Positions 346 through 10,646 of a stretch of 47,019 nt of DNA are shown piece by piece (position 1 is the stretch's first letter; each line of letters starts with the position of its first letter). The stretch is from positions 1 to 47,019 of the forward strand of contig JAAYXN010000105.1 in the NCBI GenBank assembly GCA_012515885.1, read 5' to 3'. This DNA comes from Rhodococcus sp. (in: high G+C Gram-positive bacteria) (lineage in GTDB: Bacteria; Actinomycetota; Actinomycetes; Mycobacteriales; Mycobacteriaceae). The notes beneath the pieces are model-generated. The model was not told the origin of the DNA, searched no databases, and saw only the letters and a program-made list of their open reading frames with translations. The translations under genes were made by a program, and so were the position numbers.

Positions 346-1092
346 ATGTCGTGGAGCACTAGCAAGCTAGCGGAGCTGGCAAACGTGAGTGTGCGGACAG
401 TGCGGCACTACCACCAGATCGGGCTACTCCCAGAACCTGAGCGGCTCTCCAACGGCTACAAGCAGTACGACACCGCACACCTAGTTGCGGTACTGCAGAT
501 TCGACGGTTATCAGCGCTGGGGATTCCACTGGACCAGATCGCGAAGATTCTCGATGACCCCGAGACAGGGGACAGGCAACTGCGTGCACTCCGAGACGAA
601 CTGGACGAGACAATCGCGCAGTTAGAGTCCACGCGGGAGGAAGTGCAACGAGTCATCGACTCCGGCGTCGACGCCGACATCTCCGTGGAAGCAGATCGAA
701 CCATGAGGGCGCTGAGACTCGACCGACACGGCGACGAGGGACGAGCACTTGCGACGGTGATGACGAACCTGTTGCCGCGCGAAGAGTTCACCCAGTTCGT
801 CGATCAGATCGAGAAGGCAGCGCCGGACTTTGCGCCAGTGGATGACGAGCTAGTTCAACTCGACCCCGATTCCAGCAGCGAACAGATCCGCGATCTCGCT
901 GGGCGCATTCTTGAGTCGATCGACGGCTTTCTAGGCGCCAACCCCGAACTGATGTCACCAGAGCACTCGCATGACGCGTCGCGTGCAGATGCAGTAAGGC
1001 ACGCTATGCAGTTGTCTTACAACCCCGCTCAATCGCAGGTGATGAACCTCGTCAACGCTGAGATGGCGAGGCGTCAGGCGGCCAGTGGTTGA
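346..1092 (+). CDS. MerR-family transcriptional regulator
   Basis: N-terminal MerR HTH (LAELANVSVRTVRHYHQIGLL-P-R--NGYKQY), then a coiled coil. GGAG RBS upstream. Confidence 0.9.
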   Translation: MSWSTSKLAELANVSVRTVRHYHQIGLLPEPERLSNGYKQYDTAHLVAVLQIRRLSALGIPLDQIAKILDDPETGDRQLRALRDELDETIAQLESTREEVQRVIDSGVDADISVEADRTMRALRLDRHGDEGRALATVMTNLLPREEFTQFVDQIEKAAPDFAPVDDELVQLDPDSSSEQIRDLAGRILESIDGFLGANPELMSPEHSHDASRADAVRHAMQLSYNPAQSQVMNLVNAEMARRQAASG

Positions 1093-1216: not shown

Positions 1217-1423
1217 ATGTCAGTGAAGGATCGGGTCGCAGAATATCGCCGCAAGATGCGCGAACGTGGGTTTCGGCCGGTCCAGGTGTGGGTTCCCGAC
1301 GTCCGTAGCGAAGAGTTCGCAGCGGAAGCCAGGCGGCAATCATTGCTGCTAGCTGCGGCTGACGCACGCAGCGATGATCAAGACTTCGTGGAAGCCGTGG
1401 CCACACCCTGGGGTGATGAATGA
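1217..1423 (+). CDS. Antitoxin, DUF3018/MazE-like family
   Basis: 68 aa with [32 protein letters not shown] and an acidic C-terminus. Overlaps the toxin start (ATGA). Confidence 0.85.
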   Translation: [68 protein letters not shown]

Positions 1424-1755
1424 AACGCGGGGAAGTGTGGACAGTCGCTGGCGGCGCCTACGCATCGAAACCCCGGCCCGCAGTAATCATCCAAGATGAC
1501 CTGTTCGCATCAACCGATTCGGTTCTCGTCGCACCCTTCACGTCGACGCTCGTCAGCGCGCCGCTCATGCGGATCCGTGTAGACCCGACAGTTGCCGGCG
1601 ACTCGTCGGGATTGGAGAGCGCAAGCGACATCATGGTCGACAAAGTCACATCCGTCAGACGCAGCACCGTACAGGCGAAGATCGGCCGATTGTCCCCGGA
1701 ACTCCTAGTAGACGTCGATCGGGCACTGATGGTCATCCTCGGGTTGGCCCGATAG
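1420..1755 (+). CDS. mazF: PemK/MazF-family endoribonuclease toxin
   Basis: MKRGEVW...KPRPAVIIQ-D...V--FTS...DKV-SV...IGRL, the PemK/MazF signature. Coupled to the upstream antitoxin. Confidence 0.9.
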   Translation: MKRGEVWTVAGGAYASKPRPAVIIQDDLFASTDSVLVAPFTSTLVSAPLMRIRVDPTVAGDSSGLESASDIMVDKVTSVRRSTVQAKIGRLSPELLVDVDRALMVILGLAR

Positions 1756-1861: not shown

Positions 1862-2740
1862 ATGGACGGTTGGAACGCCGCACTCGAAAGCATCGAACGG
1901 CAACTTGGTAGCGACGACATCGACGTGAACGCACTGGCGCGACTGGTATTGACGAATGAGTTTCAGTTCCGACGCATGTTTTCAGTGCTTTCTGGGTTAA
2001 CCCTCTCTGACTACATACGACGCAGACGGCTCACAGTCGCGGCGTCAGTAGTTCTTGAGGGTAGGGAAGCGATCCAGGATATTGCGGTGCGGTTCGGGTA
2101 CTCCTCGGCCGACGCCTTCAGTCGAGCCTTTCGAGCAGTGCACGGCGTTGGCCCGCAGGAGGCCAGACAATCTGGCGCAGTTCTGCGTTCGCAACCCCGA
2201 CTGATGATCACACTCAACATCGAGGGAGCAGAACAAGTGGACTATCGGCTTGAGAACAAGGGGCCGTTTGCGCTGATCGGACGTAAGAGGCGCATGCAGA
2301 TCGTATTTGAAGGGCCGAATCAGGAGATGATCGATTTCTACAAGGAGGTCGGCCATGACGAAATCGATGCGATCGGCGAGCTTGCGAATGTGGAGCCGAA
2401 GGGCACGCTCAGTGTTTGTACAGACTTCGAGGAGGGGCGTGAGGATGGCAGCAGCTTCGAGTTCTGGATAGCTGCCGCTGTGGAAAGCAATCCTGGGGAA
2501 GTTGAGTCCAGCGGGCATCGGCTTGATGTGCTCGACGTGCCTGCCCACACGTGGCTCGTGCTGTTCACCGAAGATACTGCGACAGAGGCCATTCAGCAGC
2601 TCTGGGTAGATGCCTACGGCAAATGGTTTCCCTCAAACCCGTACAGCGCGGTTCCTGGCCCAGAACTCTGCGTGAACGTCTACGACGAAGAAGGCAACGA
2701 CCTTCGTACTGAACTGTGGCTGCCAGTCCAGAAGGTTTGA
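1862..2740 (+). CDS. AraC-family regulator with C-terminal GyrI-like effector-binding domain
   Basis: AraC HTH (FRRMFS--SG--LSDYIRRRRLT; IAVRFGYSSADAFSRAFRAVHG) and GyrI-like tail (W...YGKWFPSNPY...GPE...ELWLPV). AAGGAGG RBS. Confidence 0.92.
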   Translation: MDGWNAALESIERQLGSDDIDVNALARLVLTNEFQFRRMFSVLSGLTLSDYIRRRRLTVAASVVLEGREAIQDIAVRFGYSSADAFSRAFRAVHGVGPQEARQSGAVLRSQPRLMITLNIEGAEQVDYRLENKGPFALIGRKRRMQIVFEGPNQEMIDFYKEVGHDEIDAIGELANVEPKGTLSVCTDFEEGREDGSSFEFWIAAAVESNPGEVESSGHRLDVLDVPAHTWLVLFTEDTATEAIQQLWVDAYGKWFPSNPYSAVPGPELCVNVYDEEGNDLRTELWLPVQKV

Positions 2741-2767
2741 AAGTGTCGAAGGGGGCTCCCGGAGTCC

Positions 2768-2873
2768 ACGTGACATAAACCGAGAGTCGGAAGCGCCAAG
2801 GGGAGGCACCTTCCGTCTTTACTTGACATAAACCGAGAGTTGGAGGCATCGAGCAGGGCCCTTTCCGGTCTTT
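2768..2873. repeat. Two 53-bp tandem units, each carrying a dif-like (cer-like 11-8-11) Xer site
   Basis: Sites read ACGTGACATAA-ACCGAGAG-TCGGAAGCGCC (2768) and ACTTGACATAA-ACCGAGAG-TTGGAGGCATC (2821). Both units end in GTCTTT. The next XerD arm (dif) starts at 2874. Confidence 0.8.
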
Positions 2874-2901
2874 ACCTGACATAATGTAGATTATCGGCAA
2901 A
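2874..2901 (-). other. dif: Chromosomal dif site (XerC/XerD dimer resolution)
   Basis: Minus strand reads TTTGCCGATAA-TCTACA-TTATGTCAGGT, matching the actinobacterial dif pattern (..GCCGATAA-N6-TTATGTCAAGT). It is intergenic, and gene orientation mostly converges on it from both sides. Confidence 0.88.
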
Positions 2902-2971
2902 ACGGTGACCTGGGGATTTTCGGCGAAATCGGCGTTCACCCCATATGTAGACGCACACAGCTCCAACGTGC

Positions 2972-3013
2972 CGTTGCCAACGCGGGATGAGTCTGCACTC
3001 CGTGTTGGCAACG
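2972..3013. repeat. Inverted repeat (hairpin)
   Basis: CGTTGCCAACGCGG-N14-CCGTGTTGGCAACG, 13/14 complementary. Confidence 0.55.
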
Positions 3014-9802: not shown

Positions 9803-10135
9803 CTAGCGGAGCCGTTCTGCGTCCCGCGCTCGCTGCACCAACTCTGCGCATAGGGCCGCTAGTTCGTCGCGGCTCGCGTTCTCGTCGACGGCGGTAGCGA
9901 TGTCTTCCGCGGCGGCACGCACCTCGAAAGCACGATCAGCGAGGGCCCGGGCCTCCTCCGCGGTGAGAATGACCGAATCCGGCGCCAGATCGGCACGACG
10001 AACTTGGCTGCGCTGTTCATAGGCGCGTTGACGGCAGGATTGACGACAATAGCGGCGACGGCGACCCACTTCTGAGTCGGCAACTTCGCGGCCGCACCAC
10101 AAGCAAGATTCGAGGCGGCGTGAAACGGATGCCAT
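9803..10135 (-). CDS. Conserved hypothetical protein (Rv2049c-like; CxxC...CxxxC zinc motif)
   Basis: CLWCGR...GRRRRYCRQSCRQRAYEQR. Divergent from rbpA as in mycobacteria. TAGGGT lies 8 nt before the ATG. Confidence 0.8.
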   Translation of the reverse strand: MASVSRRLESCLWCGREVADSEVGRRRRYCRQSCRQRAYEQRSQVRRADLAPDSVILTAEEARALADRAFEVRAAAEDIATAVDENASRDELAALCAELVQRARDAERLR

Positions 10136-10195
10136 GTCGAGTCACCCTACTGGGCGGTTGCCGGTAAGCTGGCGTGGTTGCGATGCAGACACCCC

Positions 10196-10223
10196 GGGAA
10201 CCTTTATGGGCTCGGGCGCGTTG
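10196..10223 (+). promoter_or_regulatory. SigE/SigH (SigR)-type promoter of rbpA
   Basis: GGGAAC-N17-CGTTG, matching the ECF consensus, about 85 nt upstream of rbpA. Confidence 0.8.
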
Positions 10224-10307
10224 TATCTACGTGTGCTTGTTCGGGTACCTGCAGGGTTAGGTACCTACCAGCGGACACACAGAATTGACCGACGAGAGGA
10301 CACCACC

Positions 10308-10646
10308 ATGGCAGATCGCGTACTTCGAGGTAGCCGACTCGGAGCGGTGAGCTACGAGACCGACCGTGACCATGATCTCGCGCCCCGCCGGATGGCGAAG
10401 TACCGGTGCGACAACGGTGAGGTGTTCGATATCCCGTTTGCTGACGACGCGGAGATCCCGGGCACCTGGCTGTGCCGCAATGGTCTGGAAGGCACCCTGG
10501 TTGAGGGCACTGCCCCGGAAGCCAAGAAGGTAAAGCCGCCCCGTACCCACTGGGACATGCTGCTTGAGCGTCGGAGCACCGAAGAGCTTGAAGAGCTTCT
10601 CAAGGAGCGCCTCGACCTGATTAAGGCCAAGCGCCGCGGCGCGTAA
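10308..10646 (+). CDS. rbpA: RNA polymerase-binding protein RbpA
   Basis: MADRVLRGSRLGAVSYETDR...KPPRTHWDMLLERRS-EELEELL. The true start is ATG 10308 (GAGAGGA RBS), not the longer ORF-track start. Confidence 0.97.
   Translation: MADRVLRGSRLGAVSYETDRDHDLAPRRMAKYRCDNGEVFDIPFADDAEIPGTWLCRNGLEGTLVEGTAPEAKKVKPPRTHWDMLLERRSTEELEELLKERLDLIKAKRRGA

Follow-up and report, generated by a model that had tools for sequence, protein, structure and literature searches.

Two extra XerD arms beside an ordinary chromosomal dif in a Rhodococcus: candidate relics of XerD-anchored micro-duplication

How does a chromosomal dif come to be accompanied by two further XerD arms, each exactly 53 bp from the next? The question is raised by a contig of Rhodococcus sp. 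(Mycobacteriales; assembly GCA_012515885.1, contig JAAYXN010000105.1), of which positions 1 to 47,019 form the window, that is, the whole stretch of DNA analysed here. A sequence-only reading had described the extra arms as cer-like Xer sites in helical phase and had offered two explanations for them, namely attachment sites or scars of a Xer-exploiting cassette system that stacks at dif, or XerD docking sites with a non-recombinational role. The relevant features are listed below, with the extra arms referred to as satellites 1 and 2 and the XerD and XerC sides of dif as the D side and the C side.

346..1092, plus strand: MerR-family regulator, a context gene
1217..1755, plus strand: mazE-like antitoxin and PemK/MazF toxin, in the lower-GC region on the D side
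1862..2740, plus strand: AraC/GyrI-like regulator, the gene of the D-side flank, with its stop codon 27 bp before the distal arm
2724..2778, minus strand: unit U3, satellite XerD arm 2 (2768-2778, TTATGTCACGT) and a flank reaching into the end of araC
2779..2831, minus strand: unit U2, satellite XerD arm 1 (2821-2831, TTATGTCAAGT) and a diverged copy of the 42-bp flank of U1
2832..2884, minus strand: unit U1, the XerD arm of dif and its 42-bp native D-side flank, ending in the common 12-bp stretch that contains the '8-bp core' (2832-2839)
2874..2901, minus strand: chromosomal dif, with the XerC arm at 2891-2901, the 6-bp centre TCTACA at 2885-2890 and the XerD arm at 2874-2884
10134..10646, plus strand: open reading frame containing rbpA, a synteny marker for the terminus region

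The GC content is 58.5% on the D side of dif, compared with 62-64%. The start of the contig (1-172) resembles the end of an IS, and reads diverge at 170-172. An imperfect inverted repeat of 72 bp lies at 1101-1172, with a second copy on contig C207, and an NRPS-like open reading frame of 9,940 amino acids (10817-40639) lies downstream of rbpA. Homologues of the mazE-like gene were found about 0.5 kb or less from a dif-like site in two of six other genomes (L196 and L198). Comparison of the array region with Rfam gave no structured-RNA match, and no promoter was found in the array, where a single weak terminator-like stem (2801-2814) is at chance level.

The dif itself is ordinary. Its placement at 2874-2901 is supported by an 11-6-11 structure with both arms, by the match to congeners and by synteny with rbpA, and a search for a better dif in the rest of the assembly (75.8% complete) returned none with both arms, which leaves this as the only such site. 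With one mismatch allowed, the same pattern occurs in 38 of 40 congeners, at least two of these matches looking like chance (L030 and L051 were dropped from later profiles), and the centre TCTACA is common among them. In all five congeners tested, rbpA lies on the C side in the same orientation, 2.6-61 kb from dif; here the distance is about 7 kb. Known dif and XerCD systems of Actinomycetota, as described in the accessible parts of the reports on the Frankia-type dif (PMC3025954) and the mycobacterial dif (10.1101/758037), agree with this 11-6-11 form, whereas the sites examined in relatives are without the two extra XerD arms found here. The dif sites of the family also share a C-side motif, approximately CAGGTC, 6-11 bp before the XerC arm (here within window positions 2902-2920), and a D-side GG...CCC motif at +12 to +21.

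Two Xer-like recombinase genes are present in the assembly, and we infer which of them is XerC and which XerD. Near-full-length matches in congeners share 71-79% identity with the XerD-like protein, and no close relative was present among the genomes compared. Seven large-genome congeners (G001, G006, G009, G017, G024, G428 and G433) gave no strong XerD-like match among the matches listed, and in the same seven no TCTACA or TCGACA dif was seen. A search for the FtsK gamma domain returned no match in this assembly, which is 75.8% complete. To the right of dif the GC skew is positive, opposite to the textbook sign; it is dominated there by a 30-kb gene, and the contig begins 2.9 kb to the left of the site. 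Polar KOPS motifs were considered and dropped: the E. coli motif occurs three times on the contig, always on the plus strand, with two copies pointing away from dif.

The three XerD arms are borne out at 2768 (ACGTGACATAA), 2821 (ACTTGACATAA) and 2874 (ACCTGACATAA), as is their spacing of exactly 53 bp. The 11-mer TTATGTCANGT occurs four times in the 2.83-Mb, 509-contig assembly, three of these within the array, and the 8-mer TTATGTCA occurs ten times; the chance of two additional TTATGTCA copies inside 150 bp is about 2e-8. Both satellite arms have the same orientation as the XerD arm of dif, at +53 and +106, and each matches it at 10 of 11 positions, the exception being the variable position 9; with this match both carry the bona fide XerD arm expected of a XerD-only site. 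An assembly artefact at the array is unlikely because the copies have diverged. Among the listed contigs of four read runs, none spans 2401-2985, and the bin 2801-3000 has a depth of 0.15; runs with small shares were left out as evidence. A lone perfect XerD arm, also without a XerC arm, lies on another contig (G000:C98:175-185).

The two dif-proximal units, U1 and U2, are one duplicated unit. Outside the arm they are identical at 32 of 43 columns, with seven transitions, two transversions and two gap columns, and none of 4,000 shuffles scored as well. The equal spacing and the common 'core' therefore follow from the duplication; the core, whose identity in both satellites was confirmed by recount, is simply the end of the unit. 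Satellite 1 has its left side in common with satellite 2 and its right side in common with dif. The first 24 flank bases of U1 and U2 resemble the native dif flanks of 62 relatives in a gapped comparison (p 0.011 and 0.013), which was a second test; the ungapped profile, run first, gave p 0.065 for U1, 0.041 for U2 and 0.41 for U3. The flank of U3 matches U1/U2 at 23 of 47 columns (p 0.09 and 0.21, not significant) and runs into the end of araC. Both U1 and U2 are still 53 bp long, although an apparent deletion and an insertion separate them.

Homology between dif and the satellites begins at the first base of the arm, its inner edge, which is the site of the XerD cut. At the centre positions next to the arm dif has ACA and the satellites GGT, with no base in common. 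The arms are intact at 10 of 11 positions, whereas the flanks have diverged by 26-49% (about 49% for U3). The neutral probability of retaining both arms is about 0.25 x 0.06 if the divergence is split between the copies and 0.05 x 0.001 if all of it lies on the satellites, figures that are biased in that the arms were found through being intact. As for the helical phasing proposed earlier, 53 bp does equal 5.05 turns, but this adds little: 8 of the 31 periods from 38 to 68 bp fall within 1 bp of whole turns, equal spacing is expected of a duplication, and the parallel case in Actinomycetospora has periods of 50 and 51.

The layout is rare. Tandem arms 41-71 bp apart were found in none of 400 genomes of the order. 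Of 95 dif-like sites from 93 of 94 loci, this is the only one whose D side carries full lone arms within 300 bp; one such arm, at -62, is present at a Gordonia plasmid site, and three others are weak. At a further locus (L106) a second full site lies 236 bp from the first and has the D-side flank in common with it. Relaxed patterns gave one match in 400 genomes of the class and four in 300 of the family, and all five lack both a full second arm and a duplicated flank. Across GTDB, 185,579 species were scanned for exact TTATGTCA pairs 38-68 bp apart, which gave 21 loci; two of these are titled actinobacteria (L065 and L056), and the remaining 19 were inspected by eye only. In the first of the two, from a Mycobacteriales MAG, the lone arm lies at +63 beside an unrelated flank and is followed by an inverted arm-like copy. 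The accessible portion of the literature yielded no description of such a layout.

The second, L056, is the Actinomycetospora locus L167. Matches were present in 32 of 34 Actinomycetospora genomes, giving 30 loci, two of which (L167 and L169) show a duplicated arm; L191 represents the single form of the locus. In both, the arm and about 40 bp of flank occur twice, with periods of 50 and 51 and the junction at the inner edge of the arm, and the satellite arm of L169 is mutated at position 2. Homology is evident between the proximal and the distal flank (p 0.008 and <0.001), and the single-copy flank matches the distal copy (57 and 51) far better than the proximal (22 and 22), which fits either faster change in the proximal copy or an incoming foreign half-site. 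Since L167 and L169 probably share one event, there are only two independent junctions in all.

Several other arrangements came to light in these searches. Two loci of the same genus, L204 (1556-1570) and L205 (minus strand, ~1515-1499), carry a degenerate arm-like motif exactly 47 bp from a dif-like site, preceded by TCTCRG, which is faintly like the satellite core and may be chance. Two contigs of 68% GC titled Rickettsiales (L059 and L063) have a dif with arms in mixed orientation. Many dif-like sites of relatives (L150-L163, L019-L021, L026, L038, L106 and L111-L117), often on plasmids or small contigs, combine variable 6-bp centres with flank motifs that recur on either side; in L163, two such sites separated by 10.7 kb have the C-side flank in common. 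Their appearance is that of dif modules or accessory sequences of actinobacteria, of which the accessible literature on pdif and Rhodococcus gave no account. Among viral contigs, 8 of 13 loci judged by eye (L006, L007, L009-L011, L013, L014 and L017) carry clusters of two to five or more lone TTATGTCAAGT-type arms.

We consider it about an even chance (probability roughly 0.5) that the satellites are XerD-anchored micro-duplications of the XerD half of dif, and mostly relics. Cleavage by a tyrosine recombinase yields a 3'-phosphotyrosine and releases a 5'-OH that attacks the bond of the partner (PMC5241119). XerD makes its cut in the bottom strand, where the centre begins (PMC9226527), and acts first in dimer resolution (PMC9226527; 10.1101/758037). 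On the plus strand of the window, the 3' end of each arm lies exactly at the bond that XerD cuts. Two short tandem duplications of the XerD arm with about 42 bp of flank, each starting at this cut point, could then have arisen as follows. After cutting at the inner edge of the arm, XerD would remain bound to the arm-side 3' end. Rather than being exchanged with the partner dif, this end would be ligated to a stray 5'-OH some 50 nt away on the sister chromosome, and replication would then fix the duplication, leaving dif intact and adding a lone arm without a XerC arm. The second copy may stem from another such event or from unequal exchange between the repeats, and U3 would be the oldest copy.

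The homology of U1 and U2, the resemblance of their flanks to native dif flanks, the lack of a common base next to the arm, the rarity of the layout and the independent Actinomycetospora junction at the same edge speak for this origin by micro-duplication. Against it count the non-significant homology of U3 outside the arm and the constant 53 bp of U1 and U2 despite indels; moreover, there are two independent junctions only, a short common centre could have decayed, and the match to the distal copy in Actinomycetospora also fits a foreign half-site. That both satellite arms keep all ten positions outside position 9 counts against their being relics. No report of a duplication made by XerD was found in the literature as far as it was accessible. 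The satellites are likely to bind XerD without recombining.

The first alternative, which we regard as unlikely, is that the half-sites have been kept by selection as extra XerD docking sites, either for SMC unloading or for holding FtsK/XerD at the terminus. Arms intact at 10 of 11 positions against the 26-49% divergence of the flanks favour it, as do the period of 5.05 turns and the existence of XerC-independent XerD sites (XDS) in Bacillus and Staphylococcus (PMC9226527, accessible in part). In the available descriptions of the XDS of Bacillus subtilis and Staphylococcus aureus (PMC9226527 and PMC11898615), these sites, like the satellites, have a full XerD arm without a XerC arm and lie in the terminus region. 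They also have, 5-6 bp from the arm, an inverted inner half-site of five bases (an inversion that is our reading of the XDS definition in the accessible part of PMC9226527), whereas the best candidate beside the satellites, at 5-8 bp, matches at 2 of 5 positions; and unlike XDS, the satellites adjoin dif, derive from it and are lineage-specific. Further against selection for docking, no such D-side array occurs at the 94 other dif-like sites of relatives or in the 400 genomes of the order, the satellite arm of L169 has decayed and the parallel periods are 50 and 51, and the assembly holds no field of lone arms, with one other copy present. The satellites may have the docking role proposed earlier and may work like XerD-only sites, but they lack the Bacillus signature and the array is not fixed among relatives.

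That the tandem duplication arose in the ordinary way, through replication slippage or unequal recombination and without cleavage by XerD, is in our view distinctly unlikely. On this account full-dif copies are excised by Xer and the half-sites survive; the homology of the units and the rarity of the layout agree with it, and full-dif direct repeats are indeed excised in mycobacteria, as the available text of 10.1101/758037 describes. Surviving junctions, however, could then fall anywhere in the centre or the inner XerC arm, whereas both independent cases start exactly at the edge of the arm, and there is no microhomology between the centre of dif and the end of the unit.

It is improbable that the satellites are scars, each an attachment half left behind when a Xer-exploiting element or dif module that had inserted at dif was lost again. 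This would accord with the lower GC of the D side (58.5% against 62-64%) and its mazEF, merR and araC genes, with the mazE homologues beside dif-like sites in two of six other genomes, with the frequency of dif-like sites on plasmids and small contigs of relatives, and with the sharing of the two sides of satellite 1 between satellite 2 and dif; the proximal Actinomycetospora unit, too, may be foreign. Nothing but a copy of the flank lies between the sites, however, the junctions are without a XerC arm, the centres do not match dif, and the motif was found neither in the rest of the assembly nor in 40 relatives, with no related match in metagenomes. The searches behind this covered the genome, relatives and plasmids, as the sequence-only reading had advised, and gave no other copy. 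With one mismatch allowed, the satellite motif occurred in 0 of 40 relatives; in viral contigs it had one match, read as coding DNA; the satellite 20-mer had no match in metagenomes; and a 19-letter pattern had eight there, none with a dif or second arm within 120 bp on each side. A plasmid search returned 27 records, none covering 80% of the query and most matching dif only, mainly from Gordonia and Rhodococcus; two match the U1 flank at E=6.

Known counterparts are the arrays of integrative elements exploiting Xer (IMEX) at dif1 of Vibrio cholerae (CTX, RS1 and TLC; PMC9226527), which likewise stack partly degenerate Xer sites beside a working dif. There the attP of TLC has a defective XerD arm, whereas the satellites miss the XerC side. 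In IMEX arrays, element DNA lies between attL and attR; here the arms are separated by the flank copy only, their centres do not pair with that of dif, and no folded single-strand attP was found, a CTX-like hairpin scoring no better than shuffles (z 0.69 and 1.11). The idea of cassette or attachment-site scars thus gained no positive support, with no cargo between the sites and no second copy of the motif. Nothing points to a new mobile system, so the argument for a new cassette system lapses.

That the satellites are working 11-8-11 cer-like sites recombining through their common 8-bp core is highly improbable. Recounting agrees with the earlier figures of 8/11 and 7/11 matches to the cer arm and of 3/11 between the 2821 copy and the local XerC arm in the 6-bp register. 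At face value the likeness to the cer arm is above chance, as at least 8/11 (best of three registers) is reached in 0.4% of random places, with the reference arm taken from the earlier note and chosen after the fact and the two satellite copies not independent; the term 'cer-like' is weak in that the match to the local XerC arm is poor. In the 8-bp register satellite 1 matches that arm at 6/11 positions, including the two innermost bases, and satellite 2 at 3/11. Over the inner seven bases the matches are 4/7 and 2/7, and a comparison of the two putative C arms shows differences at 4 of 11 positions, so that by sequence comparison no XerC arm recognisable to the host lies 8 bp from the XerD arm. 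ColE1 cer resembles the satellites in the identical 8-bp stretch before the arm and in arm likeness, but the satellites are chromosomal. According to PMC9226527, the inner XerC arm of cer carries two changes, and cer requires accessory sequences and proteins, for which 53 bp would leave no room; exchange between the satellites would also delete one unit. Strand transfer requires pairing of the first 2-3 bases of the centres (10.1101/758037, accessible in part), and conventional exchange between satellite and dif is therefore ruled out. On these comparisons of arms and centres, the satellites fall outside cer-type sites, XDS and IMEX attachment arrays alike.

Returning to the micro-duplication reading, a bolder and quite doubtful extension is that one-armed transfer by XerD, stamping its own arm beside dif, is the birth process of half-site arrays, and that this lineage kept two copies, in helical phase, as XerD docking sites. 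At present the case comprises one rare, lineage-specific layout and one independent parallel, without conservation. Should the junction rule hold, the recombinase's own error would provide a concrete origin for lone XerD arms next to dif, and dimer resolution would be linked to the Bacillus sites at which XerD, independently of XerC, unloads SMC.
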